64,000 nucleotides of DNA, from the sequence record PZ357121.2; one strand, 5' to 3'. The translations under genes and the position numbers were made by a program. Positions 4,722-59,322 of the stretch are shown here, in pieces. The DNA comes from a phage. Below the pieces are notes generated by a model. The model searched no databases. It worked only from the letters and a program-made list of their open reading frames with translations, and was not told the origin of the DNA. Every line of letters begins with the position of its first letter. Position 1 is the first letter of the stretch.

Positions 4722-5015
4722 TCAACTGTAACGATAACATTCGTTAGCTTTACGTTTGGCTTCAGTATGAGAAGTATTATAATCATACTCTTCTTTACTG
4801 TAAACATCTTTTTTCAACTTACGAACTTCTTTGCGGAGTTGTCGATTCATTTCATTCTTGACTTCAGAATCAACGCCTTTCATACGCTTCCATTTATCAG
4901 AGCGGAATATGTTTTCAACCATGTCTTTGTGGCTAACACCGTCAGGAGCTTTACGCTTACCAAAATAGTCGTAATCGCGAACTTTCAAATCTTTACGACG
5001 ATATGTTTTACCCAT
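4722..5015 (-). CDS. hypothetical basic protein
   Basis: ORF track 4722..5042 (TTG); ATG at 5013-5015 with GAGGT upstream gives 97 aa. Confidence 0.5.
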   Translation of the reverse strand: MGKTYRRKDLKVRDYDYFGKRKAPDGVSHKDMVENIFRSDKWKRMKGVDSEVKNEMNRQLRKEVRKLKKDVYSKEEYDYNTSHTEAKRKANECYRYS

Positions 5016-5022
5016 AAGTACC

Positions 5023-5271
5023 TCAGAGGTTGATTGATACAACGCGTTTGATAAAATTCACTTCACTTACTGAAAGGTCTTTAAGACCGATTGATTCTAA
5101 ACGCTGAGTAAGCGTCAACATCGGGATATAATCCCAATGAGTTTTATTTGCTTGATAAGTACGAACGCCATTAGCAATTTCAACGTTCAAATCAGAAATG
5201 GTAATGAATATCGGACGTTCGTCATTAACTTTAAGGGTTAGAACAACTTTCTTTGAATCTAAACTAATCAT
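5023..5271 (-). CDS. hypothetical protein
   Basis: ORF track 82 aa. Confidence 0.5.
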   Translation of the reverse strand: MISLDSKKVVLTLKVNDERPIFITISDLNVEIANGVRTYQANKTHWDYIPMLTLTQRLESIGLKDLSVSEVNFIKRVVSINL

Positions 5272-5616: not shown

Positions 5617-5940
5617 TCAATCTTCTATGATATCAGAGTCATATCCTAATGAAATCAAGGACTTTTTAAACTCTGCAATATTCTTTTGTTTCTTATCATT
5701 TAAAAATATGACAGGATAACGAATATTAAGTGAAGTGAATCCTGCACGTTTAGCAAGAGATACGATTAAAGGACGGTCATATTCAATCTTACCATTATTA
5801 GTGAGGACTTTATAAAATGTATAAGGAGCATTGAGCTCCTTTAAAAGTTTTGTAACAGTATAACATCCTGGACAACGTCCAACTTCTTCAGGGATGCCAT
5901 AAATTTCAATCTTGTTCTTTAAGTTCGAGTTTTGTTCCAC
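5617..5940 (-). CDS. nrdH: glutaredoxin-like protein NrdH
   Basis: CPGC redox motif (GRCPGCYTVTKLL); ORF track 150 aa has an implausible hydrophobic N-terminal extension; GTG at 5938-5940 with AAGGA upstream gives 107 aa; start uncertain. Confidence 0.6.
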   Translation of the reverse strand: MEQNSNLKNKIEIYGIPEEVGRCPGCYTVTKLLKELNAPYTFYKVLTNNGKIEYDRPLIVSLAKRAGFTSLNIRYPVIFLNDKKQKNIAEFKKSLISLGYDSDIIED

Positions 5941-6223
5941 GAGAAATAATTCCTTGGTAAGCCCAATAAGGAGGATTAACAGAATCCTCGCCAGAGTTTT
6001 CTTCAGGAAAATAAACCTGGATAACGAAGCCGGATTCATCAAAGGTAAAATAAACCGTAGGCAGTTCACCTAACAAATCGGCACGAGCGTTGATTTCTTC
6101 GAGGTCTTGTTCACGTCCAGCCCAGAAGCTTGGGTTCAGACTACATTCATAGAAATAATAGTCATTACCGAACATATCAAAACCATTCCAACTCTCTACT
6201 ACATACCGCTCAAAACTAATCAT
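5906..6223 (-). CDS. hypothetical acidic protein
   Basis: ORF track 105 aa. Confidence 0.5.
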   Translation of the reverse strand: MISFERYVVESWNGFDMFGNDYYFYECSLNPSFWAGREQDLEEINARADLLGELPTVYFTFDESGFVIQVYFPEENSGEDSVNPPYWAYQGIISRGTKLELKEQD

Positions 6224-6225
6224 AA

Positions 6226-6441
6226 TTAAGCCTTTTTATCAAGAACAGAGTTCAGTTTATTAGTAATTTTGTCCAAACGTTCATTGAATTCGCTGGAGGA
6301 TAAACCCTTTTCTGGAGAAATTAAACTAATCACGAAAAATACACCAGTAAAAGGAATAAGAAAAATAGCTCCAACTGCCATAAACAAAAAGAACGTTACA
6401 GTTGTAAGAAAATCAGCTAAACCTTTACGAAATTTGTACAT
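6226..6441 (-). CDS. hypothetical small membrane protein
   Basis: ORF track 71 aa; hydrophobic stretch FFLFMAVGAIFLIPFTGVFFVISLI. Confidence 0.5.
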   Translation of the reverse strand: MYKFRKGLADFLTTVTFFLFMAVGAIFLIPFTGVFFVISLISPEKGLSSSEFNERLDKITNKLNSVLDKKA

Positions 6442-7022: not shown

Positions 7023-8310
7023 TGGTGTTTAACCCTATGCATGATTTCTTTATTTTTACCGAGATTAAATCCGCGTTCGTTCGGATTTCCCAAATAACCA
7101 CATGTTCTTCTTATTGTGTTCATCTTTTTAGGATCAGTTTCTCCACAAACTGAACAAACAAATCCGTTTTCAGTAGGAGTCATTTCATGGGTACTTCCGC
7201 ATGTAAAACATTTATCTACTGGCATATTAACACCAAAATAATCTAAATGTTGTGCAGCATAATCCCATACGGCCTCAAGACCTTTTAGGTTATTTTTCAT
7301 ATCAGGAAGTTCAACATAAGAAATGTGACCGCCGGTCGCTATGAAATGATATGGCGCTTCACGAGAAATCTTTTCAAACGGAGTAATATTTTCTTCTACT
7401 GAAACGTGGAAACTGTTAGTGTACCAGCCTTTATCGGTAACATCCTTTACACTTCCATATTTTTCTGTATCGAGTTTACAGAAGCGATAACAAAGGTTTT
7501 CAGCAGGAGTCGAATATAAACTAAAAGCAAAACCGGTTCTTTCAGTCCACTGCTTAAGATGAGCATTCATTTTAGTTAAAATTTCTTGTCCAATATCACG
7601 ACCGACAAGAATATTCAATTCGTGAATACCAATGTATCCTAAGGACACTGAACTTCTACCGTTTTTAAATAACTCAATTATATCGTCATCAGGTTTAAGA
7701 CGAACCCCGAATGCACCTTCTTGGTAAAGAATAGGAGCAACAGTCGCTTTAACACCCTTTAAAGAACTAATTCTACACATCAAGGCTTCAAAACACAGAT
7801 CCATTCGTTCATTAAACAACTCGATAAATTTCTGTTCATTGAACTGTGTTCCAATATAAGAATCTAATGCGATGCGAGGAAGATTCAGCGTTACAACACC
7901 GAGATTATTACGTCCATCAAGAATTTCATTACCAGTCGAATCTTTCCATACGCTCAAGAAACTACGGCAACCCATTGGAGAAACTGGAACTGAAGAACCG
8001 GTAATAGCTTTATTATTCTTAACCGAAATAATGTCAGGATACATTCTTTTGCTTGCGCATTCTAACGCAAGTTGTTTAATATCATAGTTCGGATCATCTT
8101 TATAAAGATTAACACCTTCTTCAACAAACATAACAAGTTTAGGAAAAATAGGAGTTATTCCATCACGACCAAGACCTTTAATGCGGTTTTTAAGAATTGC
8201 CTTCTGAATAATTCGTTCAGTCCAGTCAATTCCCGTACCAAATGTAATTGTCACAAAAGGCGTTTGTCCATTAGAGCTGAAAAGTGTATTTACTTCATCA
8301 TTATATTCAG
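7019..8310 (-). CDS. nrdD: anaerobic ribonucleotide reductase NrdD, exon 2
   Basis: glycyl radical motif RRTCGYLGNP and zinc ribbon CFTCGS...CSVCGE at C-terminus; exon boundary inferred at about 8310. Confidence 0.85.
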
Positions 8311-27849: not shown

Positions 27850-28110
27850 TTAAGCTTTACCACCAGAAACAATTCCAAAGTTATCAAAATCGTATTCAAT
27901 ATCATCAGCATCCACTTTAGGTCCCGCTACGATGTATGCGATTTCGCGGCGCTTTGCATAGGTATTGATTTCTTTACCGTCACCACCTAAGAAAGAATAT
28001 CCATTACGTTTTAATGAGCCAAAGTCTTCAGCATCACCTGCGAATGCTTTAACTTTAAATTTAGGGCCTTTAACGACTGCTTCTGTGATAAATTCTTGAT
28101 ACGTTTTCAT
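27850..28110 (-). CDS. internal head protein (IP) paralog with N-terminal capsid-targeting sequence MKTYQEFITEA
   Basis: 86 aa from ATG at 28110; N-terminus matches the conserved T4 IPI/IPII/IPIII leader. Confidence 0.6.
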   Translation of the reverse strand: MKTYQEFITEAVVKGPKFKVKAFAGDAEDFGSLKRNGYSFLGGDGKEINTYAKRREIAYIVAGPKVDADDIEYDFDNFGIVSGGKA

Positions 28111-28125
28111 TTTTATGTCCATTAG

Positions 28126-28597: not shown

Positions 28598-28879
28598 CTA
28601 TTTTTCTGAAGCGCCTGAAATATATTTTTCAAGACGTTGTTTCATTAGCGAGCCGTTCTTAGCGATTTCTTCCGGTTTATCGCACATACGTAACAAGGCT
28701 TCAAGCTTAGCGATATCGCTGGTACGTTCAAATTTGCGAGTATCTATCTTACTAGCAAGTTCAGAAATACGTGCTAATAGACTTTCAGCTTCAACCAAAG
28801 CTGCACCTAGCTTAGTTGCAAATGTGTCAGTAGCTTCGTTAAGAATAGATTCTGATAAAAATTCACTATATGTTTTCAT
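28598..28879 (-). CDS. internal head protein (IP) paralog with leader [11 protein letters not shown]
   Basis: 93 aa from ATG at 28879. Confidence 0.55.
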
Positions 28880-29364
28880 ATATACGCTTTCCAAGTTCCT
28901 GTTTTAAATGTTGAGATTACGCGTTTCGCGCGATTAGGTGTCTGACGATACCATTTAGATTGGGCTAGATTTACTGCCGCTTCATCCCAACGTTTCTGTT
29001 GAAGCATACGAAGAGAATTAGTAAAACCGGCGACTCCTGCTACACCCATTTGGAAGACCATATTGACCAATGCACACCGACGAACTGCATCTAAAGAATC
29101 ATATACCGGTTTAAGTTTAGCATTACCCAAGATTCCGCGGACGGCTTTATCAACGTCTTCATTAAATAGCTTTTCAGCCTCATCAAGGGTAATTGTACCG
29201 TTGCATTTACGTCCGATCATTCTGTCAAGTTCAGCTTTAGCTACGGCTAAAGACGGATTCTTTGTTACTAAATGACCTATGCCAATCGTCCAAAAGCCTT
29301 CAGTGTCTTTGTATAAAGTCAGTCTAAGACCTTCGTCATTACGAAGCATTTCAAATATATTCAT
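28876..29364 (-). CDS. e: lysozyme (endolysin) e
   Basis: 162 aa from ATG at 29364 (MNIFEMLR); catalytic E11, D20, T26 conserved; roughly 80% identical to T4 lysozyme from memory. Confidence 0.9.
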
Positions 29365-29365
29365 A

Positions 29366-29400
29366 ATACCTCCCACGTTTATAGGAGGTATTTATTACTT
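29366..29400 (-). promoter_or_regulatory. lysozyme regulatory hairpin TACCTCC/GGAGGTA with late-promoter-like AATAAATA and TATAAACG; 3' arm is the Shine-Dalgarno
   Basis: minus strand AAGTAATAAATACCTCCTATAAACGTGGGAGGTATTATG; same architecture as the T4 gene e translational control. Confidence 0.55.
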
Positions 29401-29854
29401 ATAGGAGGGTAGTGAGCACCTTATATAATGATTTGCCCATTACATATTCCCATTGAGAAGGTTTAATTAAAGCGAATGCATCAAATTCAGGAATCTGTCG
29501 TCCGTCTGGGAACGTATGATAGGAATTACAAACACTGTTTCTGAATTGCTCGTGCTCTACAGGGATGGTATATAAGAACAGATGAATATTCTTATTGTCT
29601 GAGTAACGATGTTCACCTAGGTCTTTCAGGAAGGCAGGGTCATATTGTGTAAACCCAGTTTCTTCTTCGCATTCACGAATAGCGGCTTCGATAGGAGATT
29701 CACCGGGCTCGACACGGCCTTTAGGAATATCCCACCGATGAGCTAAAGAACCTTTAGGACGAGAACCAGTTACACGGCCCATGAATAACTCTTTATCTTT
29801 TGTCATGAAGATAATACCAGCTGATAGCTCTTTCACTTTATTTTTCTTACTCAT
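29399..29854 (-). CDS. nudE: Nudix hydrolase NudE
   Basis: 151 aa from ATG at 29854; Nudix box GRVEPGESPIEAAIRECEEETG. Confidence 0.8.
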   Translation of the reverse strand: MSKKNKVKELSAGIIFMTKDKELFMGRVTGSRPKGSLAHRWDIPKGRVEPGESPIEAAIRECEEETGFTQYDPAFLKDLGEHRYSDNKNIHLFLYTIPVEHEQFRNSVCNSYHTFPDGRQIPEFDAFALIKPSQWEYVMGKSLYKVLTTLL

Positions 29855-30333
29855 CATCTCAAATTCCTGCATTCGGTAATAAAATGTTCAACTTCATTAT
29901 TCTTGGCCTTTATCTTGTCTTTATGATCTTGTAAACTACTTTTAATAAGATTAATAATGATGGCGGCGGTACCGCCGCCAATGATGCCACCAACAACACT
30001 TATGATACTAGATGCTAATAAGATAGCAATAATATCAACAAAACCGAAAGAACTCACCTTAGTACTGAAAAACCATATAGACGGTACAAATATAATCCAT
30101 CCTGTTATCCATTGGCACTTATTGAAAAACCTTTCAAGCTCAGCTTGAGTTGTTCGTATTACTTCATCGATAGGTTGATATCCATTAATGTATCTGTTCA
30201 CGATAATACCTGCTGGCTGGTCGATTTTAAATTCTTGACAAATATGTTTCACTAAGTAGGATGGACAGGATGTCCAATCTACTGAATAGTATGAAATACC
30301 TTCATTGCCATCGTCTATATTATTGTTAATCAT
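29854..30333 (-). CDS. hypothetical membrane protein with C-terminal HFITECR motif
   Basis: 159 aa; TM segments; C-terminal motif shared with 31021, 33475, 34177 ORFs. Confidence 0.5.
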   Translation of the reverse strand: MINNNIDDGNEGISYYSVDWTSCPSYLVKHICQEFKIDQPAGIIVNRYINGYQPIDEVIRTTQAELERFFNKCQWITGWIIFVPSIWFFSTKVSSFGFVDIIAILLASSIISVVGGIIGGGTAAIIINLIKSSLQDHKDKIKAKNNEVEHFITECRNLR

Positions 30334-31019
30334 TACCAGCCTTCCATAGGGAATTCCAGATAAACTTGAGCATTGACACGAATTTCATTGGTAATCTTTT
30401 TAACTCGGTCTGTATTACGAGATACACGTCCGAACCAACGCCATCCATTACTAATTGCACGAGAACCAGTGTGCCATGTTTGCCAATCAAACTGAAGAAG
30501 AGTACGATCTGGAGCTTCCCATTTCTCTAGTTCACCTTTTTCGATTTTTTCGAGGACTTCTTTGTGCCACTGGCGATAGATAAGTTCGCCATCAGGAATC
30601 TGACCGAACTCTGCAGTTCCTGTTGCAAAATGAGTAGGACACACATCAGCGTTAACAAGACCAAGAATATGTTCAGAATGGTAACGAGGGTTGTCATAAT
30701 CAGGTTGTCCTGCAGTAATAAAGTGTTGACCGGCTGGAATATCAGGGCGTGGTACGTCATCATGGTGATATCCAGGAATAGCAGGATACCAACCAGGCAT
30801 CAACATGTGAACTCGTGAATCAAATACTACATCCGAGTCTTTCCAATCGCCAGGAAGATTTTGGATAAAGCTACGAGTAATTGGACCGCCATTATCAAAA
30901 GCAAAATTCAAATCGCAGTTAAAGAACATAGGCTCGTTTTTAATCTGGTCGTTTTTAATCGCGTGAGCAAAACCACCTACTGCACGAGCTTGGCTATTAA
31001 ACACTTTAGAACTATTCAT
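30333..31019 (-). CDS. hypothetical protein with His-rich HxD...H motifs (possible metal-dependent enzyme)
   Basis: 228 aa; GYHHDDVPR...AGQHF. Confidence 0.45.
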   Translation of the reverse strand: MNSSKVFNSQARAVGGFAHAIKNDQIKNEPMFFNCDLNFAFDNGGPITRSFIQNLPGDWKDSDVVFDSRVHMLMPGWYPAIPGYHHDDVPRPDIPAGQHFITAGQPDYDNPRYHSEHILGLVNADVCPTHFATGTAEFGQIPDGELIYRQWHKEVLEKIEKGELEKWEAPDRTLLQFDWQTWHTGSRAISNGWRWFGRVSRNTDRVKKITNEIRVNAQVYLEFPMEGW

Positions 31020-31020
31020 A

Positions 31021-31326
31021 TTATTTTCCTCGACATTCTTTAATGAAATTTTCTAGATTGGTAGATTCAATAGCTTTTTTACGAGCTTCTGCGTGTTCTT
31101 CTTCAGACAATTTACATTTATAATTGACCCAGACATTATGGTCGAAACTAGTCGTGGCATATAATAACAATGCTCCAACGAATAGCAAAAACGGCGATAA
31201 GAATACAAAACCAGGAACACCATCCATATCGTAAGCCTTTTGTAATACTGCAACAGAAAGAGCTGCGTAAAAAGGTGATGCAAATATTGTTAAAAGACCA
31301 ATTCGGTTGGTTTCGCCTAATTTCAT
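31021..31326 (-). CDS. hypothetical membrane protein with C-terminal NFIKECR motif
   Basis: 101 aa; GAGGAG before ATG. Confidence 0.5.
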   Translation of the reverse strand: MKLGETNRIGLLTIFASPFYAALSVAVLQKAYDMDGVPGFVFLSPFLLFVGALLLYATTSFDHNVWVNYKCKLSEEEHAEARKKAIESTNLENFIKECRGK

Positions 31327-31345
31327 AATATTCTCCTCATGTTTT

Positions 31346-31384
31346 AATAGGACTACTATAACATAGTCCTATCATGTTGTAAAC
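31346..31384 (-). promoter_or_regulatory. hairpin-embedded early promoter, family A copy
   Basis: plus strand aataggactactataacatagtcctatcatgttgtaaac. Confidence 0.6.
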
Positions 31385-31396
31385 AGTTTTGCGAAA

Positions 31397-32353
31397 CTAT
31401 TTGAAAGGTTTTACCATATGGAAATTTTGTTTGAAACGTTTGACGTAATCATCATGTCCTAAGCTTTGATACATACTTACTACTTTGCTGTAGTTTTCCC
31501 AGGCATACTCACGGAACCAGCCGGAGGTTATGCTTGTGCAGACTTTTTCTAATGCTATCATAAAACTGGCTTCAGGGTTAATTTTAAAGTCATTAGGAAT
31601 CTGAGAACGTTCTAATGCTAGTACACATGATTCTTCGTATACGCCGGCCAATTTGACCATTTCTGGCAATGATTCAAACTTCTCGCGTGAGGTCATGACT
31701 TCAGAACCGTCTTTCATATAAAATGTATACGCTGGACGGTCTGTTAGTGCAATGGCTTCATGAATAGTATCATGGTCGTATGTATAGATGTCATCTTTAA
31801 AGAACGCACTTTTAGAAGTGTCAAGAACTGGGTGAGCATAGTTCAAGGTTTCTTTCTGGCGTTTCAGCATAATTTCAGTAAGTTCATCGTTCAGTGTAAC
31901 ACCTTTACCACGAAGATACTGAATATGGTTCATAGTCTTTAAAAAGAACGGATTATTTTTCTTGAAACGATGAGACATCTTAATTGCAAGACATATCTCA
32001 GGAGTTGCCCAGTAAAACCCATTCAAACGGTCTTTAGACAAATGTTTCTTGGCGTATTTTAAAAGGTCATAAGAAGACGTGAAATCTTCAGGAGTGAGTT
32101 CACCGACTAATTCACGGACATTAGTGATTGCCGGAACAATATACGCTTCAAAATGAGTTTCGCGTCCGTTATGGAAGCATTTGAAAACTTGGACATCAGG
32201 GTTATCTTGATGAACATATACACCCATCATTTGATTTTTGAATGTATTCCAAGAACCTTGGTCTGCAATAAAGTCCCAGTCACTATTTTTGATAGCGTTA
32301 GAATCAATAAGACCATGATAGTGAAGTGCACGAGAACCAATAACTAACATCAT
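31397..32353 (-). CDS. hypothetical 318-aa protein (N-terminal IGSRALHYHGL...SDWDF, weak NTase-like signature)
   Basis: ORF track. Confidence 0.45.
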   Translation of the reverse strand: MMLVIGSRALHYHGLIDSNAIKNSDWDFIADQGSWNTFKNQMMGVYVHQDNPDVQVFKCFHNGRETHFEAYIVPAITNVRELVGELTPEDFTSSYDLLKYAKKHLSKDRLNGFYWATPEICLAIKMSHRFKKNNPFFLKTMNHIQYLRGKGVTLNDELTEIMLKRQKETLNYAHPVLDTSKSAFFKDDIYTYDHDTIHEAIALTDRPAYTFYMKDGSEVMTSREKFESLPEMVKLAGVYEESCVLALERSQIPNDFKINPEASFMIALEKVCTSITSGWFREYAWENYSKVVSMYQSLGHDDYVKRFKQNFHMVKPFK

Positions 32354-32381
32354 AATATTTTCCTCGGATTAATTCATTAAC

Positions 32382-32621
32382 TTAAATTTCACGACATGCG
32401 ATATCATATTCATCCCAGAGGTCATCGTGTGAAGCCTCTACCAATGGAACGATTGTACCATTTATGTCTTCATTATAAGGGCAAATTGTACAGTGCGCAT
32501 CTTCGAATCGAATGCCTTTGTGTTCAGATTTTTTATAACGCATATCGAATATCTTTGCAAACTTTTCACGAGTAATGGTTTTAGCAACCACTTCGGTTCC
32601 AACACTTTCGTAATAAATCAT
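32382..32621 (-). CDS. hypothetical protein
   Basis: ORF track 79 aa; GGAG before ATG. Confidence 0.5.
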   Translation of the reverse strand: MIYYESVGTEVVAKTITREKFAKIFDMRYKKSEHKGIRFEDAHCTICPYNEDINGTIVPLVEASHDDLWDEYDIACREI

Positions 32622-32640
32622 TGTGGACTCCGTTTAATTT

Positions 32641-32679
32641 GATAGGACTACTATAACATAGCCCTATCTTGTTGTAAAC
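32641..32679 (-). promoter_or_regulatory. hairpin-embedded early promoter, family A copy (one arm mismatch)
   Basis: plus strand gataggactactataacatagccctatcttgttgtaaac. Confidence 0.55.
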
Positions 32680-32683
32680 TGTT

Positions 32684-32881
32684 TTAGCAAGAATAACTAG
32701 ATGATACCCAGCCTTGAACAGTAATACTATTATTTGATACCGAGATCGCGTTCTGGAGATTCAGGCCTGCGTTATCTTCAATCCACAATGTAACTTCTTC
32801 GCGTTCTTCTGTTGCAATTTGGAACAGGTTTTCTAGGGCAGCTACTGCCGTACGTACAGCACAATCTAATTCACGAGACAT
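32684..32881 (-). CDS. hypothetical small protein ending GWVSSSYSC (paralog family)
   Basis: ORF track 65 aa. Confidence 0.45.
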   Translation of the reverse strand: MSRELDCAVRTAVAALENLFQIATEEREEVTLWIEDNAGLNLQNAISVSNNSITVQGWVSSSYSC

Positions 32882-32890
32882 ATGGTTTCC

Positions 32891-33163
32891 TTAACAAGTG
32901 TGAGAAGATGCGATCCAACCACCAGTTTCGAGGCTCAGGTTGTAGTCGTATTGGTAAACATCAGCCCATTCAGCATAGCCGTTTTTTGTACAACGTTCAA
33001 GATCGGCTTTAAGTTGTCCGGGTGAATGATAGGTTCCACCCATACCATAAGCTGGACACAAGTCGAATGTTGTGTTTTGTTTATCAGCAATTTCTTTGGC
33101 AGCCTCAATAGCTGCATAGATTTTTGCTACGGCTTCAGCCAGTTCGGTTTGTTCTTTAGACAT
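32891..33163 (-). CDS. hypothetical small protein ending GGWIASSHTC (paralog family)
   Basis: ORF track 90 aa. Confidence 0.5.
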   Translation of the reverse strand: MSKEQTELAEAVAKIYAAIEAAKEIADKQNTTFDLCPAYGMGGTYHSPGQLKADLERCTKNGYAEWADVYQYDYNLSLETGGWIASSHTC

Positions 33164-33172
33164 AATGATTCC

Positions 33173-33478
33173 TTAGCACAACGCAGAAGACGAAACCCAA
33201 GCACCTTCAGTAATAACGTAACCATTACCTTCACGCTTAACATCGCCACCATTATTTTCAATTTCATCTTTCATCCACTGGGATACGATTTCACCCTTAG
33301 GATAATAAGTACGACCGCTACCATAATCACCTACAGAAAATGATACGGCGTATTGGTCTGCGATCTTTGTTGCTTCTTCTTCGATACGTTCAGCTTGATT
33401 CAGAAGTTTATAAATTGCATCTGAAGCGGATTTGGCATCATTAAACTCTGGTACTTTAATTTCAATAATCTTACTCAT
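33173..33478 (-). CDS. hypothetical small protein ending GAWVSSSALC (paralog family)
   Basis: ORF track 101 aa. Confidence 0.5.
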   Translation of the reverse strand: MSKIIEIKVPEFNDAKSASDAIYKLLNQAERIEEEATKIADQYAVSFSVGDYGSGRTYYPKGEIVSQWMKDEIENNGGDVKREGNGYVITEGAWVSSSALC

Positions 33479-33834
33479 TTTCTACATTCCTTAATAAAGT
33501 TTTCTATTGTTTCATTTTCACGTCTAGCTAGGAGTTCATTATAACTAATCATTTGAGAAGCGTAAACCTTTTTATTTTTCTTGTTATGGTTTATAAAATC
33601 GTAGTAAAAATAGACTACAGTACAAAATGATGCGATGGATGCAAAGGCTTGGGTATACCGTAAGTCCTGCCATTGGTCTGTGAATCCACCAGTGTTCCCT
33701 ATAAATCCTAACACAACGCCGTCAATAAGAAATCCAACTAATCCAAAGGCAAATCCCATGCCAATACTCATAATAAAAATTAGAATGTTCTCACCAAGAG
33801 AAGGCCATACGGTTAAGAGTTGAGGCTTTTGCAT
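33475..33834 (-). CDS. hypothetical membrane protein with C-terminal NFIKECRK motif
   Basis: ORF track 119 aa. Confidence 0.5.
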   Translation of the reverse strand: MQKPQLLTVWPSLGENILIFIMSIGMGFAFGLVGFLIDGVVLGFIGNTGGFTDQWQDLRYTQAFASIASFCTVVYFYYDFINHNKKNKKVYASQMISYNELLARRENETIENFIKECRK

Positions 33835-34238
33835 CTTATTTCCTTAACGAATTCCATAGCTTCTTCATATTCATACTTTTTAACAGCTTCGTCATACTGA
33901 GCTTGGGCTTTTGCGCACTGAACTTTCCATTCTCTTAATCGGGCTCTGTGATGACGTCCTTGGTGCCAATATCCTGCCCAATTAATAGGCATTAATAAAA
34001 ATGGTACAATAAACGACCCGGCTATAATAAGTAAAAACACTGCATCAGACGATATAACTTCACTAGAATCTAAAATAGCTCCTATAATCATAAAGATTAA
34101 AAATGCTAAAGCTAAAATAGGGCCAAATAGTACTTCATTTGGGATTAATTTACGCTTGTATTCATACGCCCAGGGCTTACTTGGCATGTATAGGGTTGGC
34201 TTTGACATATTCTCTACATTCCATAATAAATTGCTCAA
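33813..34238 (-). CDS. hypothetical membrane protein (start uncertain)
   Basis: ORF track 141 aa; two TM segments; possible start at internal Met near 34190. Confidence 0.45.
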   Translation of the reverse strand: MSNLLWNVENMSKPTLYMPSKPWAYEYKRKLIPNEVLFGPILALAFLIFMIIGAILDSSEVISSDAVFLLIIAGSFIVPFLLMPINWAGYWHQGRHHRARLREWKVQCAKAQAQYDEAVKKYEYEEAMEFVKEIRCKSLNS

Positions 34239-34794
34239 GGATTAAATTGTTAGTGAAATTAGGACTAACAACCATGGTTTCATAAAGCGCATCAATAGCA
34301 CTTAAAGCATCAACTCTTTTAAGCAAAGGCTTGCCTTCATACATAGTTTCAGAATCGACGATTAACGTAAAGTAATATTTTTTATTATCGACTAGAACTT
34401 CAGTATCGATATAAAACATGTTAGACCTTAAGAGCTTATCTCTAAAACCATAATAATCTTCAGAGCGTTCGCTGATATAGTCCCGTTCAGTGTTTAAACA
34501 ACAAACAGACCATGTAGGAGCAACAAAATCAGTGAATCTAATATCATGGTCTGCAACTAGTTTAGCAATAGCTCCGATATCATGAATCATAATACCTGGG
34601 GCTAATAAAGATTTTCGGCGATTTGCATATTCAGTTGTCTCATAAGAAGACGACCAGTACCATTTACGTCCAGTTGCAACATATCGTAATGAATCAACTA
34701 AAGAAGTAGGTGGATTTACCTTATTTCGGAACTCTTCGAACATTGAGTCAATATCATTATTTTGGTTTCGCATGTTAACTCCTTTATTATCCAA
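34177..34794 (-). CDS. hypothetical protein with near-C-terminal QFIMECR motif
   Basis: ORF track 205 aa. Confidence 0.5.
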   Translation of the reverse strand: MDNKGVNMRNQNNDIDSMFEEFRNKVNPPTSLVDSLRYVATGRKWYWSSSYETTEYANRRKSLLAPGIMIHDIGAIAKLVADHDIRFTDFVAPTWSVCCLNTERDYISERSEDYYGFRDKLLRSNMFYIDTEVLVDNKKYYFTLIVDSETMYEGKPLLKRVDALSAIDALYETMVVSPNFTNNLILEQFIMECREYVKANPIHAK

Positions 34795-34821
34795 AGGAGG
34801 ACCGGAGTCCTCCGTATTATT

Positions 34822-35415
34822 TTATTTCAAAGAGTTAATATATTCTTGTACATCAGCAGAAGTGGTTTCGACACCAGCTGGAGCGCCATTGAACGTTTCA
34901 ACACGAGTCAGAGTGTCTTCGATATCAACCTTAGTCAGTGCAGCGATTTCAATTACATCGTCAGCCGTAGAGATACCAAGGGCATTAGCTGCTCGAGTTT
35001 CACGAATGTATTCGAGTTTGATTGCCAGATTCTGACGAGCATCGTCAAGTTCAACAACCTTACGAGCAATTTCAATTCGCATAGCGGCATACCCGTCAGC
35101 TTTTGTATTAAGTTGTTCAGCCGTTCGACGATACAGAAGACCAAGCTTAGCATGCATGGTAACATCTTGACCTTCAGCCAGGAGCTTACGAATTTCACGT
35201 TCCTTAGAAGCGGCTTGCTTATTCTTTTCATTAACAAGTTCGCGAATACGTTTTTCTTCATTAATAGATTTAACAGAAGCCGTTTTTAGTTCTTTGATTT
35301 GGGTAATCAACTTATCTGCAGCTGCGTTATACTGTTCTTCGACAGTCAGATTTTTAGCCATAGCAGTACCCAGTTTAGTGCGGATGAATTCAACAAGTTT
35401 CTTCAGTGTGTTCAT
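34822..35415 (-). CDS. hypothetical coiled-coil protein
   Basis: ORF track 34822..35430; ATG at 35415 gives 197 aa. Confidence 0.5.
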
Positions 35416-35439: not shown

Positions 35440-35486
35440 TATTATCCAATGAGAGCATTATACTCTGCTCTCAAGAGTTTGTAAAT
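35440..35486 (-). promoter_or_regulatory. early-type promoter with -10 between inverted arms GAGAGC/GCTCTC (copy 2 of ~50-bp repeat; compensatory change versus copy at 4041-4080)
   Basis: minus strand ATTTACAAACTCTTGAGAGCAGAGTATAATGCTCTCATTGGATAATAAA. Confidence 0.55.
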
Positions 35487-35780: not shown

Positions 35781-36086
35781 TTAATTTTTCCAACTTAACA
35801 ACTTGTAGTGTCCTTCATTCATACGTGGTTTATCCCAAGAAATACTAATATATGATTCGCTGTCAATAGAAGTCGCCGGGTTTTTCTCTACCGTAAGACC
35901 TTCACTTTCCAGCCATTCAATAGTATTTGCGCATAAATCGGAAGAACACCTCATTGGAAACCGGCAAGATTTTTCACCTTTAGCTGCAGTGTTATACATC
36001 TTTTCTAAAATACGCTTTTGCACGTTTTTAAAAATAGTTTCAGCAGATTCTTCAGATTTTTTATTCAGTTCAGTATAAAGATTCAT
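35781..36086 (-). CDS. hypothetical protein
   Basis: ORF track 35781..36113; ATG at 36086 with GAGGAG upstream gives 101 aa. Confidence 0.45.
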   Translation of the reverse strand: MNLYTELNKKSEESAETIFKNVQKRILEKMYNTAAKGEKSCRFPMRCSSDLCANTIEWLESEGLTVEKNPATSIDSESYISISWDKPRMNEGHYKLLSWKN

Positions 36087-36103
36087 AATATTCTCCTCAT
36101 TAA

Positions 36104-36141
36104 TAGGGCTCATAATATCTCAATCATAAGCCCGTGTAAAC
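36104..36141 (-). promoter_or_regulatory. early-type promoter with -10 inside imperfect hairpin (GGGCTTATGA...TATGAGCCC)
   Basis: minus strand GTTTACACGGGCTTATGATTGAGATATTATGAGCCCTATTAATGAGGAG. Confidence 0.45.
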
Positions 36142-57742: not shown

Positions 57743-59322
57743 GTAATAACAATACATACCAACACGTTTCAAACGAATCCATTTACGTTGAATTCGACCC
57801 AGTAGGGTCGAATTTTCCAGATACAGTCACTAATGTCCAAGCCGCATTAGCTGCTATTTCTCCTTCAGGTGTTAATGGCGTACCGGAAGCAACAACTACT
57901 ACACCTGGAATTATTCAAATAGCCACTCCACAAGAAGTTATTGATGGATTAGATAATAATAAAGCTGTTACTCCGGCATCACTGAATGCTCGTCTACAAT
58001 ATCCTAATGCAACCGAAACTCAATATGGTTTAACTCGTTATGCTACTGAAGATGAAGCAGTAGCCGGAGCTATTGACGATGCATCAATTACTCCGCTTAA
58101 ATTGAATCAAAAAATAGACAATGTATTCCAGACAAAAGTATCAACAGAAGCAACAAATGGTGTAATTAAAATTTCAACTTCTGCTGCGGCATTAGCTGGT
58201 TCTGACGATACAACGGCAATGACTCCGTTAAAAACGCAACAATTAGCAATTAAACTTATTTCGCAAATTGCTCCAAATAATAGTGACGCCACCGAATCTA
58301 TTACAGGTGTTGTTCGTTTAGCTACAGTTGCACAAGCACAACAAGGCACCCTGCGTGAAGGCTATGCAATTTCACCTTATACCTTTATGAATTCAGTAGC
58401 ATCAGAAACTAATAAAGGTGTCGTTAAACTAGGGACACAGACTGAAGTAAATAGTAACAACTCTTCAGTTGTAGTGACCGGCGCAACATTAAACGGGCGT
58501 GGGGCTACAACTTCTTTACGTGGAGTTGTTCGTTTAACTACACAAGCGGGTAGCCAATCAGGTGGTGATGGTTCTTCTGCCCTTGCTTGGAATGCTGATG
58601 TTATCCACCAACGAGGCGGTCAAACTATTAATGGCACTCTTCGCATTAATAATACGTTGACGGTTGGTTCTGGTGGTGCTAATATAACGGGTAATGTCAA
58701 TATGACCGGTGGTTATATTCAAGGCAATCGTATTGTGACTCAAAATGAATTAGACCGAATTCTTCCAGTTGGCGCTATTACAATGTGGGCTGCAGATAGT
58801 TTGCCGAGTTCGGACTGGCGTTTCTGTCACGGTGGGACCGTTTCTGCTTCAGAATGTCCGGTATATGCTTCCAGAATTGGGACACGATATGGTGGTAGTT
58901 CTTCTAACCCAGGCTTGCCCGATATGCGTGGATTATTTGTTCGCGGCTCAGGTCGTGGTAACCATTTAACTAACCCTAATGTTAATGGTAATGACCAATT
59001 CGGTAAGCCTCGTCTGGCGGTAGGTTGTACCGGTGGATATGTTGGTGAGGTGCAAAAACAACAGATGTCATATCATAAGCATGCTGGCGGTTTTGGTGAA
59101 CATGACGATGCAGGAGCATTCGGTAATACTCGTCGTTCAAACTTTGTTGGTACTCGTAAAGGACTTGACTGGGATAACCGTTCGTATTTTACTAACGATG
59201 GATATGAAATTGATCCAGCGTCTCAGCGTAACTCTAAATATACCCTGAATCGTCCAGAATTAATTGGAAATGAAACTCGCCCATGGAATATTTCTTTAAA
59301 CTATATCATTAAGGTAAAATAA
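57739..59322 (+). CDS. 12: short tail fiber protein gp12
   Basis: 527 aa, identical length to T4 gp12; conserved C-terminal receptor-binding region. Confidence 0.9.

Follow-up and report, generated by a model that had tools for sequence, protein, structure and literature searches.

Short C-terminal peptides and the e.2 to e.5 cluster

The T4 proteins gp43, gp33, gp55, and RNase H share C-terminal clamp-binding tails that bind gp45, and the consensus of these tails is a hydrophobic LDFL(F/Y)-type sequence at the very end of the chain. The SHOCT domain (PF09851) is likewise short and C-terminal; it occurs on diverse membrane proteins and is frequent in Psp neighbourhoods. PspB and PspC (in enterobacteria) and LiaI (in Bacillus) are small membrane partners of PspA-family proteins. 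T4-type hyperplastic regions, in turn, reportedly undergo modular shuffling at repeated gene-boundary sequences (promoter-early stem-loop cassettes). Here, we analyzed a window of 64 kb, i.e., the whole stretch of DNA under study, from an RB69-like Mosigvirus (a T4-type phage), in which five neighbouring early genes on the minus strand, e.2, RB69ORF133c (133c), e.3, e.4, and e.5, encode proteins that bear the same kind of short C-terminal tail.

These tails recall the gp45-binding tails in concept, since a similar short peptide at the C-terminus of unrelated T4 proteins docks on one hub, the hub being hypothetical here. The gp45-binding tails, however, lack FIxxCR and occur on proteins of replication and transcription, not of the membrane. 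Upon inspection of all tails, none resembled the LDFL(F/Y) type and their ends were basic, and we rejected a gp45 clamp-binding tail. Like SHOCT, the tail is a short module at the C-terminus of heterogeneous, often membrane-bound bodies; SHOCT membership was rejected as well, given that no tail protein scanned matched PF09851 at E ≤ 0.1 and that the consensus differs. The same Pfam scan of the tail proteins returned no family at E ≤ 0.1, save for irrelevant sub-threshold matches. As with the stem-loop cassettes, gene-end repeats drive the gain and loss of ORFs: the motif-coding microhomology mediated a clean natural loss of e.2 in L014. In contrast to those cassettes, the repeat here is coding and conserved as protein, and its nucleotide identity extends over just 5–16 nt.

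The five ORFs match annotated T4/RB69 orthologues, and the PHROG profiles align end to end (E of 1e-47 to 3.5e-94). Their position on the early strand, from e.6 to nudE, is kept, with the gene order of RB69 and ATK47; T4 has the same e.6-to-nudE order without the ORF132c-139c insert, and the e.2–e.3 interval contains a variable insert in Mosigvirus, Dhakavirus, Gaprivervirus, Marfavirus, and Karamvirus. A palindromic stem-loop between e.6 and e.5 (34796..34813, strand unassigned), listed as a putative terminator in the ATK47 annotation and as a stem-loop in the T4 record L13089, precedes the overlapping gene run e.5-e.4-e.3. Just upstream of 133c, a candidate site resembling T4 early promoters by consensus match (TTTACA-17-TATAGT with TG; 31355..31383, minus strand) is present, and the Nudix hydrolase gene nudE (29399..29857, minus strand), which begins at the e.2 stop codon, is the last in the overlapping run. 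Database records go no further than calling the products hypothetical or predicted membrane proteins (T4 e.2, e.3, e.4, and e.5 are msp7-msp4 in GenBank L13089), and in neither these records nor the searchable literature on the genes did we find a shared C-terminal motif mentioned.

The ORFs and C-termini that the earlier note had reported are as it gave them, all on the minus strand, but two of its starts probably are not: the annotations of T4 and RB69 make 34773 and 34208 the likelier starts of e.5 and e.4. The e.2 orthologue (29854..30333, 159 aa; RB69 e.2, PHROG 2203, E 1e-47) consists of an acidic N-terminal domain, a hydrophobic hairpin at approximately residues 88–131, and a 28-aa tail ending in EVEHFITECRNLR, with the motif HFITECR at 29866..29886. 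The 133c orthologue (31021..31326, 101 aa; PHROG 9798, E 4e-68) is a minimal “hairpin + tail” protein, in which two hydrophobic segments are followed by a 40-aa tail ending in NLENFIKECRGK (motif NFIKECR, 31030..31050). In the e.3 orthologue (33475..33834, 119 aa; PHROG 2330), a hydrophobic hairpin and a basic stretch, NHNKKNKK, precede the tail, which ends in TIENFIKECRK (motif NFIKECR, 33481..33501). The e.4 orthologue (33813..34208, 131 aa from the ATG at 34208; PHROG 2604) has two membrane segments and a 52-aa tail ending in AMEFVKEIRCKSLNS, which aligns in register with the e.3 tail; its variant motif EFVKEIR(C), at 33834..33854, has Ile in place of Cys and a Cys two residues further.

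The earlier description of all five as membrane proteins holds for these four and fails for the e.5 orthologue (34177..34773, 198 aa from the ATG at 34773; PHROG 2607), a soluble alpha/beta protein with no hydrophobic stretch, signal peptide, or membrane segment. Its motif, QFIMECR at 34213..34233, lies in LEQFIMECREYVK within a predicted C-terminal helix (residues 177–192), and the 11 residues after the motif overlap the e.4 start; confidence in the structure model, in which the tail is predicted to be helical, is modest (pLDDT 63). In the membrane proteins, the tail ends a stretch of 28–52 residues past the last membrane segment, downstream of a basic stretch. Since the motif follows both the last hydrophobic segment and this basic stretch, the positive-inside rule places the tails of e.2, 133c, e.3, and e.4 probably on the cytoplasmic side. 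This stretch is also probably helical. The hydrophobic moment of the tails does not stand out: shuffled sequences matched the observed value in 3–53% of trials, and the tails are thus not marked as an “amphipathic docking helix”.

Conservation of the tail as protein

Pattern searches of the 64 kb in six frames located the motifs given above. The strict pattern F[IVL]xEC[RK] gave four matches, all at the C-termini of the cluster proteins, 1–11 residues before the stop, and a looser pattern added a single match, the EFVKEIRCK of e.4 that had already been singled out as a weaker version. In the whole T4 genome (six frames), the core [FW][IVL]xxC[RK] matched six times: in e.5, in e.3, in an e.2 tail fragment, once internally in gp30.3, and twice in non-coding frames. 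The motif thus occurs far beyond chance and is specific to the e.2–e.5 cluster, the other T4 matches being at chance level. Its consensus is [LIVM]-x-x-[FW]-[IV]-x-x-C-[RK], followed by 1–16 mostly basic residues, with ends such as CRK, CRKLK, CRRARK, and CRVKR.

Among 10-column blocks, the motif block ranks first for conservation in the e.5 and e.3 families and second in the e.2 and e.4 families. Within the window, its codons differ from gene to gene (TTT/TTC, TGC/TGT, and AGG/CGA/AGA). Among 62 distinct nucleotide versions, the Arg column is encoded by AGG, CGT, AGA, CGA, and CGC, along with AAA for Lys, and the Cys column by TGC 21 times and TGT 32 times. The use of five Arg codons and two Cys codons implies selection on the protein, and the substitutions that do occur are conservative (I/V, E/D, R/K, and F/W). 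Furthermore, the longest identical nucleotide runs between pairs of window tails span 5–10 nt, mostly no better than random 45-mers. The claim of protein-level conservation, as opposed to a repeated DNA sequence, is thus borne out: the tail peptide is under purifying selection as protein.

Comparison of the phage sequences indicates that this conservation extends over at least seven genera. At least ten different bodies carry the core [FW][IV]xxC[RK] in T4, Dhakavirus, Gaprivervirus, Marfavirus, Karamvirus, and Muldoonvirus, and the tail is retained in orthologues from T4, Dhakavirus, and Gaprivervirus VR7 that are merely 25–50% identical overall. In T4, e.3, e.4, and e.5 bear the same tail; the reference e.2 does not, because its ORF is interrupted. 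Further bodies with the motif, some lacking membrane segments, are found in Marfavirus EI (five proteins), Karamvirus EnC07 (six), and Muldoonvirus (two), and the soluble carriers comprise e.5 in five genera, EI 4943..5227, and EnC07 5727..6068. In the e.4 lineage, the Cys is replaced or moved (Ile/Ser and then Cys in T4 and Mosigvirus) or absent (in EI, VR7, and one EnC07 protein). As such, the Cys is dispensable there, and the chemistry of any handle is less defined.

Explanations for the shared tail

The best explanation, which we hold tentatively and at somewhat short of even confidence, is that the tail serves as a common interaction handle, for a shared cytoplasmic partner or for mutual binding. 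On this account, four two-segment hairpin proteins of the inner membrane (e.2, 133c, e.3, and e.4) and the soluble e.5 would all present a short tail helix that binds one shared cytoplasmic partner, or other tails, at the inner membrane. The tail would have spread inside the cluster by tandem duplication (e.2/133c and e.3/e.4) and would have moved by recombination onto other bodies, e.g., e.5 and the soluble proteins of other genera, and its carriers would be co-expressed and translationally coupled. Gene overlaps, ATGA and similar, are as expected of proteins made in fixed ratios. Indeed, downstream genes start within or at the stop of the gene before them, whose coding sequence also contains their Shine-Dalgarno sequence: the ATG of e.4 is inside e.5, and ATGA overlaps occur at the ends of e.3 and e.2.

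This arrangement also raises the question of whether the peptide is a by-product of the DNA, either of the downstream initiation region (AU-rich leader, Shine-Dalgarno sequence, spacer, and ATG) or of a repeatedly shuffled linker. A check proposed in the earlier note, for overlap with the downstream start, showed that every tail overlaps either the Shine-Dalgarno sequence or the start codon of the next gene. Specifically, TGC AGG AAT of the e.2 motif also holds a Shine-Dalgarno-like AGGAA for nudE; in 133c, CGA GGA after the motif gives GAGGA for ORF132c (ATG at 31019); and AAG GAA serves as Shine-Dalgarno sequence in both e.3 and e.4, where AAA TGA holds the ATG of the next gene (33173..33478) and AGA TGC that of e.3, respectively. 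Moreover, codon choice at the x position seems to follow the Shine-Dalgarno sequence (AAG for 27/31 Lys and GAG for 7/7 Glu, each directly before GAA, in sequences that are not independent), the T4 e.4 and e.5 tails share an identical run of 16 nt, and the L014 crossover lies in the 9-nt TGCAGGAAA common to the e.3 and e.2 tails. However, the register of the Shine-Dalgarno sequence varies (on K-E, E-E, C-R-K, or R-G, and wholly downstream of the motif in Dhakavirus e.5), the downstream ATG falls at a variable 2–25 nt past the Cys codon, and no Shine-Dalgarno sequence accounts for F, I, and C of the motif. With differing registers, overlap with translation signals fails to account for the motif, and the codon variety, conservative residue changes, and mostly random-level nucleotide identity described above also stand against a constraint on the nucleotides. 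We regard this explanation as very improbable and already largely refuted; recombination at the tails is a side effect, rather than the cause, of their conservation. Read-through of conserved intergenic DNA was likewise rejected, the ORFs being annotated orthologues and four of the five junctions having no intergenic DNA because the next gene begins inside or at the previous stop.

Common descent of the bodies, which had been called unrelated, is a more serious contender, although still unlikely: the membrane proteins would derive from one “hairpin + tail” ancestor and keep the tail for an intramolecular or structural reason (capping or hairpin packing) with no shared partner, and e.5 and other soluble carriers would have acquired it by chance recombination. 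The bodies are indeed largely unalignable, but hhalign pairs e.2 with 133c (P 8e-5) and e.3 with e.4 (P 3e-5) over 59 columns that comprise the second membrane segment and the tail, such that these pairs look like distant paralogues in profile comparison. The genes are tandem and encode membrane proteins of the same architecture, 133c weakly matches the e.2 PHROG over hairpin and tail, one EnC07 protein does so over membrane segment and tail, and two adjacent EI proteins that both end in NW[IV]KGCRK look like a recent duplication. Nevertheless, once the motif is removed, profile comparison finds no family pair significantly alike, which identifies the tail as the shared element. The membrane segments of e.2 diverge freely, even mosaically, while its tail stays, and the tail is borne by several unrelated soluble bodies, among them e.5, in whose family no block is better conserved; if its role were purely intramolecular, such different bodies would hardly be expected to share it. 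Less probable again is a stability or processing tag, i.e., a degron or a mark recognized by a phage enzyme or by a protease or chaperone of the host (ClpXP, FtsH, Lon, or DnaK), which would time the removal or modification of early proteins. One tag on many unrelated early proteins has the appearance of a degradation or targeting tag, a motif that closes or nearly closes the chain, with basic residues last, resembles the MuA-type ClpX signals, which are C-terminal, and the near-invariant Cys could serve as a modification site. Yet the motif lies 11–16 residues from the end in e.5 and some others, which is atypical of C-terminal degrons, the e.4 lineage can dispense with the Cys, and we know of no degron consensus that contains the conserved F, I, and C.

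A cleavage site (I-x-E) for the gp21 head (prohead) protease was considered separately. The I-x-E is present in Tequatrovirus, Mosigvirus, and Dhakavirus tails, but Marfavirus and Karamvirus have H, Y, G, R, or M in place of the acidic residue, and we rejected the site; the gp21 (L/I)-x-E capsid-targeting peptide is expected at the N-terminus, and the tails here are C-terminal.

The e.6 gene and a possible Psp-like module

Returning to the interaction handle, a more specific and rather doubtful version of it involves the adjoining gene, e.6 (34822..35415, minus strand), whose 197-aa product is a predicted all-helical, PspA/Vipp1 (ESCRT-III)-like protein. Its AF2 model (pLDDT 77; helices at 2–22, 25–80, 86–145, 166–175, and 186–196) has the predicted features of the PspA/Vipp1/ESCRT-III fold, namely an N-terminal amphipathic helix, a long helical hairpin, and shorter C-terminal helices. 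When the model was compared with the PDB using Foldseek, the top ten matches were nine Vipp1 structures and one CdvB2 (best E 9.3e-4, probability 1.00), with PspA (7abk) at rank 21. A six-sequence e.6 profile matches Vipp1 collinearly at E 8.7e-4, and a 24-sequence profile at only E 0.85; Pfam PspA_IM30 gave no match for e.6.

As in the PspB/PspC/LiaI systems, small inner-membrane proteins with (predicted) cytoplasmic tails here adjoin a PspA/Vipp1-like gene; unlike them, the tail proteins have no sequence match to the PspB, PspC, and LiaI-LiaF-TM Pfam families. The order e.6-then-e.5 is kept in Tequatrovirus, Mosigvirus, Dhakavirus, Marfavirus, and Karamvirus. In VR7, the tails are kept and e.6 is apparently absent, which argues against an obligate dependence on e.6, and e.6 occurs in 1071 phage records, Aeromonas phages included, versus 715 for e.3. 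The conserved C-terminal helix of e.6 has an aromatic-aliphatic-x-x-small-basic pattern, as in the FIxxCR tails, and the final nine residues of the protein (V-Q-E-Y-I-N-S-L-K) match the tail pattern in degenerate form. The genes from e.6 to e.2 could form a phage Psp-like membrane-maintenance module, in which the tails would use the docking site of the e.6 C-terminal helix, whether that site belongs to e.6 or to a host factor acting on the C-termini of PspA-family proteins. If so, the tails would anchor, nucleate, or cap the e.6 polymer at sites of phage membrane proteins, e.g., during lysis inhibition.

A shared C-terminal peptide between e.6 and nudE

The window region is 96-97% identical to Mosigvirus coliphages (RB69-like, T4-type), and its ORFs were named from synteny with, and annotation in, phages ATK47, RB69 and T4, together with PHROG profiles. 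Between e.6 (34822..35415) and nudE/e (a Nudix hydrolase gene and the lysozyme gene), five minus-strand ORFs end in a short peptide of the F-I-x-E-C-R type: e.2 (29854..30333), RB69ORF133c (31021..31326; hereafter 133c), e.3 (33475..33834), e.4 (33813..34238, probable start 34208) and e.5 (34177..34794, probable start 34773). Their C-termini are exactly those quoted in the earlier note. In the T4 record L13089, e.2-e.5 are named msp7 to msp4, and database entries for the tail genes read hypothetical or predicted membrane protein, with nothing further. Searches of Pfam, NCBIfam and PDB sequences with e.2-e.5 gave no match, the motif included; a word-indexed protein search with e.3 returned only three near-identical relatives, and an exhaustive profile search with e.5 only six proteins. 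Since the e.3 and e.5 families are confined to T4-type phages, their relatives provide no functional lead.

A six-frame search of the 64 kb with F[IVL].EC[RK] gave four matches, each at the C-terminus of one of these ORFs with 1-11 residues left to the stop, and the sole additional match to a looser pattern was EFVKEIRCK of e.4. When 26 distinct tails were made into a profile HMM, it picked up no additional ORF in the window. A six-frame reading of the complete T4 genome, taken in four pieces, shows the relaxed core [FW][IVL]xxC[RK] in e.5, e.3 and the e.2 tail fragment, and otherwise at one internal site of gp30.3 and twice in non-coding frames. These counts show that the motif is genuine, far exceeds chance expectation and is cluster-specific. 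We found no account of it in the literature searched; prior mention in a T4 genome review is possible. The motif is a shared C-terminal peptide on heterogeneous proteins of known, uncharacterised T4 gene families. It matches none of the SHOCT, PspB and PspC families, nor is it of the type of the gp45-binding tails of T4.

The tail recurs in other genera. T4 has ..EFVIDCRKIK in e.3, ..KFVKESRCKSQS in e.4 and ..KFVKECREYVK.. in e.5, and other tequatroviruses have a full-length e.2 of 162 aa ending ..NNFITECRKLK. Dhakavirus carries it in e.2 (..SFIEECRK), e.3 (..IFIKECKS) and a strongly diverged e.5 (..RFIAECREYAKE..), and Gaprivervirus VR7 in e.2, e.3 and a short e.4 (..EFIKEIRNGTA). There are five carriers in Marfavirus EI (..EEFIKHCREAVNG, ..NRFIKYCRGKHVS, ..NWIKGCRK, ..NWVKGCRK and the Cys-less ..AFLKEMRK), six in Karamvirus EnC07 (..DFINYCRG.., ..GFIRMCRK.., ..SFIDDCRRARK, ..EFITECRGK.., ..NFISRCRVKR and ..NFIQGIRGER) and two in Serratia phage Muldoon (..EFIKYCKDKY and ..KFLKSCKEKY, the latter from a frame other than that of the annotated CDS). 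In the 18 kb around nudE, neither the motif nor e.6 is present in Slopekvirus KP27 or Pseudotevenvirus leE. From these variants, the invariant core is therefore [FW][IV]xxC[RK], usually with an aliphatic residue at -3 and basic residues after it; the motif as first described holds in this core, but its acidic residue is non-essential across genera. Among 10-column blocks of the cross-genus alignments, the motif block ranks first in e.5 and e.3, and second in e.2 and e.4.

In the Muldoon locus, the annotated CDS at 7890..8267 ends ..STDEMVS, and an other-frame stop-to-stop ORF (7991..8251) ends ..KFLKSCKEKY exactly at the next gene's start, in agreement with ..EFIKYCKDKY, the tail of the next protein; a frameshift or an annotation error is likely. 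Elsewhere in the window, two internal-head-protein-like ORFs (27850..28122 and 28598..28894, minus strand) open with the T4 capsid-targeting sequence, and one begins MKTYQEFITEA... The superficial likeness of EFITE to the tail motif appears coincidental.

Coding constraint and the overlap with downstream starts

Within the window, the motif codons differ (TTT/TTC, TGC/TGT, AGG/CGA/AGA). A survey of 62 distinct nucleotide versions from 22 loci gave AGG, CGT, AGA, CGA and CGC in the Arg column, plus Lys AAA in Dhakavirus e.3; the Cys column had TGT 32 times and TGC 21 times. Replacements are conservative (I/V, E/D, R/K). The longest identical nucleotide runs among tails of one genome are 5-10 nt, mostly at the level of random 45-mers, the exceptions being a 16-nt run in T4 e.4/e.5 and a 10-nt run in Mosigvirus e.3/e.5. 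Conservation at the protein level rather than as repeated DNA, as originally proposed, is thus correct. Read-through of a conserved intergenic sequence was likewise rejected, since each ORF has an annotated orthologue, intergenic DNA is absent from four of the five junctions, and nucleotide identity among the tails mostly does not exceed the random level.

We found that, in each case, part of the tail-coding DNA also belongs to the next gene's translation-initiation region. The e.4 tail (AAG GAA ATA AGA TGC) holds the Shine-Dalgarno sequence and ATG of e.3, and the e.3 tail (AAG GAA TGT AGA AAA TGA) those of the gene after it; 133c (CGA GGA) provides GAGGA, e.2 and T4 e.3 (TGC AGG AAA) provide AGGAAA, and in Dhakavirus e.5 the Shine-Dalgarno sequence (AAA GAG GTT) lies entirely downstream of the motif. 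The register therefore varies from gene to gene. The overlap seems to influence codon choice at the variable position directly before GAA, where 27 of 31 Lys codons are AAG and 7 of 7 Glu codons are GAG, although these sequences are non-independent and the bias is to be read as a caution, not a statistic. F, I and C are inexplicable by any Shine-Dalgarno sequence. Because the registers differ, the downstream Shine-Dalgarno sequence or ATG was rejected as the main cause of the motif, even if codon choice suggests that a Shine-Dalgarno sequence has been superimposed on it: the tails are dual-coding, and the peptide is no by-product of translation signals. Spacing is also variable, with 2-25 nt from the Cys codon to the downstream ATG and 1-16 codons from the motif to its own stop, which argues against a nascent-peptide arrest or coupling signal.

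In L014, an IMG/VR tequatrovirus contig, e.2 is absent through a precise natural deletion (about 6300..6400), and the e.3 tail is an in-frame chimera, ..EFVIDCRKLK, joined directly to the nudE start. Crossing over took place within the 9-nt TGCAGGAAA (Cys-Arg-Lys codons), which both the e.3 and the e.2 tail contain; a gene can thus be lost cleanly and in frame through microhomology in the motif-coding DNA.

The same junction bears on the start of nudE. The annotated T4 start (MQEIKMK..; 1536..1991 in L002, the T4 comparison locus) uses an ATG from the e.2-tail Glu-Cys codons (GA ATG C; window 29857..29872). Since this ATG is missing in L014 (GAT TGC), translation of nudE probably begins at the second ATG, which has AGGAAA ahead of it and overlaps the upstream stop. 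The T4 reference e.2 itself (L002 1973..2461, or NC_000866 67472..67960) has 102 aa, against 162 aa in close relatives. Compared with these, its frame is broken by a pair of compensating 1-nt indels some 75 nt apart, first an A-run that lacks one base and then an added base. Between the two, the sequence is out of frame and holds a stop; beyond the second, the original frame resumes, with the second membrane segment and ..NNFITECRKLK still encoded. This is either a laboratory-strain pseudogene or an old sequencing error.

The proteins that carry the tail

The description of the carriers as small membrane proteins holds for e.2, 133c, e.3 and e.4, but not for e.5, which has no hydrophobic stretch. 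In each of the former, the hydrophobic part, either a single long stretch or two distinct ones, would fit a two-segment hairpin; after it come a basic patch and a polar tail of 28-52 residues with the motif at its end. By the positive-inside rule, these tails would be cytoplasmic. Soluble carriers comprise the e.5 family in five genera, EI 4943..5227 and EnC07 5727..6068. In an AF2 model of e.5 (pLDDT 63), the motif lies in a C-terminal helix (residues 177-192). The hydrophobic moment is unremarkable, and we therefore do not call the tails strongly amphipathic.

In profile-profile comparisons, e.2 aligns with 133c (P 8e-5) and e.3 with e.4 (P 3e-5) over 59 columns that correspond to the second membrane segment and the tail, so that, contrary to the earlier note, the bodies within these two pairs look distantly related. 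For the remaining family pairs, the alignments are restricted to 10-17 motif columns. With the motif columns removed, no family pair is significant. The 133c protein and one EnC07 protein match the e.2 PHROG weakly over the second membrane segment and tail, and the "e.5" proteins of Dhakavirus, Marfavirus and Karamvirus are distant e.5 homologues. We conclude from these alignments that the tail probably spread in part when a "hairpin + tail" gene was duplicated in tandem and in part via transfer onto unrelated bodies. Whichever way it spread, the tail is the element under selection.

A second paralogue family lies inside the same span. Tandem RB69ORF136c/137c/139c-like genes (PHROG 899, 4882) occupy 32684..32881, 32891..33163 and 33173..33478 on the minus strand, and recur at three comparison loci (L005 5351..6593, L024 3889..5414 and L025 5147..5673), with five copies each in Dhakavirus IME341 and Marfavirus EI and none in T4. 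In all 15 members compared, Cys is the very last residue, after W-x-(S/A)-S-S (window C-termini ..GWVSSSYSC, ..GWIASSHTC and ..AWVSSSALC); the Ser-rich stretch with terminal Cys resembles a putative modified-peptide core. The family accompanies ORF134c (DUF7275 + DUF7277) in Mosigvirus, Dhakavirus, Gaprivervirus, Marfavirus and Karamvirus, and ORF132c in the same genera except Karamvirus. Minus-strand sites resembling T4 early promoters (TTTACA-17-TATAAT or TATAGT) lie at 35457..35485, 36112..36140, 32650..32678 and 31355..31383, upstream of e.6, ORF 35781..36113, ORF135c and 133c, respectively. These consensus matches suggest that there may be several early transcription units inside the cluster.

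The neighbour e.6 and the possible role of the tails

The gene just upstream of e.5, e.6, is "hypothetical" in T4 and RB69 annotation, and its cross-genus identity is 54-88%, versus 25-50% for e.2-e.5. In its AF2 model (pLDDT 77), a helix at the N-terminus is followed by a long hairpin of helices and, at the C-terminus, by two short helices. Among PDB structures, Foldseek places Vipp1 and archaeal CdvB2 highest (best E 9.3e-4, probability 1.00) and PspA at rank 21. Sequence support is unstable, as a 6-sequence profile gave a collinear match to Vipp1 at E 8.7e-4 and a 24-sequence profile E 0.85. A Pfam search with e.6 gave no match; the GenBank record of phage EI names its homologue "shock protein A". 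On the structural evidence, we take e.6 to be a PspA/Vipp1-like protein of the ESCRT-III superfamily. In the literature searched, we found no paper tying e.6 to PspA, nor anything relevant on e.2-e.6 or a T4 PspA homologue.

The e.6 C-terminus, in which D188, Y192, S195, L196 and K197 are at least 90% conserved among 24 homologues, fits a degenerate tail pattern, [LIVM]xx[FWY][IVL]xx[CLIMS][KR]. When long stop-to-stop segments were counted with the pattern ending at most 12 residues from the C-terminus, it was found in 5 of 275 window segments (e.6, e.5, e.3, 133c and e.2) and 8 of 633 in T4 (e.6, e.5, e.4, e.3, rIII, mobD.3 and two non-coding frames), a fit that for e.6 is post-hoc against a background of about 0.5-1%. 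The only T4 genes outside the e cluster that fit are rIII (130785..131033), the cytoplasmic antiholin, ending ..AVRHFVVTLK-COOH, and mobD.3 (58155..58349), ending ..LVQYLEMIRWNNEN; one or two chance hits are expected.

The reading that we find best supported, at a little less than an even chance, sees in the tail a handle for interactions in the cytoplasm, common to co-expressed, translationally coupled early proteins. The tails would bind a single common partner, or one another, at the inner membrane. That the handle extends to e.6, with e.6 to e.2 forming a phage Psp-like module whose tails would dock where the C-terminal helix of e.6 docks, we consider quite doubtful. The pattern fit would agree with such a module. 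Against e.6 as an obligate partner, the VR7 locus keeps its tails without e.5 and e.6, and VR7 is absent among all records at least 95% identical to its genus's e.6; e.6 is also commoner than e.3 (1071 vs 715 records, those of e.6 including Aeromonas phages).

Among the alternatives, a relic of paralogy in which the tail has an intramolecular role is unlikely, if the least so; it fits the hairpin-and-tail alignments of e.2 with 133c and of e.3 with e.4, and sits less easily with the presence of the tail on several soluble, unrelated bodies such as e.5. We give still less weight to a stability or processing tag, with which a C-terminal position would be compatible; of its possible forms, a gp21 protease site or capsid-targeting sequence was rejected because the acidic residue is not kept in other genera and the position is wrong. 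Most improbable is a nucleotide-level constraint or recombination linker, which the L014 crossover would favour and the synonymous codon differences oppose.

The e.2-e.6 genes are T4 early genes that have been without an assigned function for decades. The shared tail unites these ORFs as one functional unit, and a peptide found on at least 10 different proteins and confined to one cluster offers a concrete experimental handle, the motif being real, well conserved and tractable. The locus also illustrates how coding microhomology is able to mediate clean in-frame gene gain or loss in hyperplastic regions. If the tails are a docking code, they would be the second T4 C-terminal peptide code to organise a multi-protein set, after the gp45-binding tails. 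The adjoining PspA/Vipp1-like protein suggests that these genes help to control the integrity of the inner membrane in infected cells, with a bearing on lysis timing, lysis inhibition and phage fitness.
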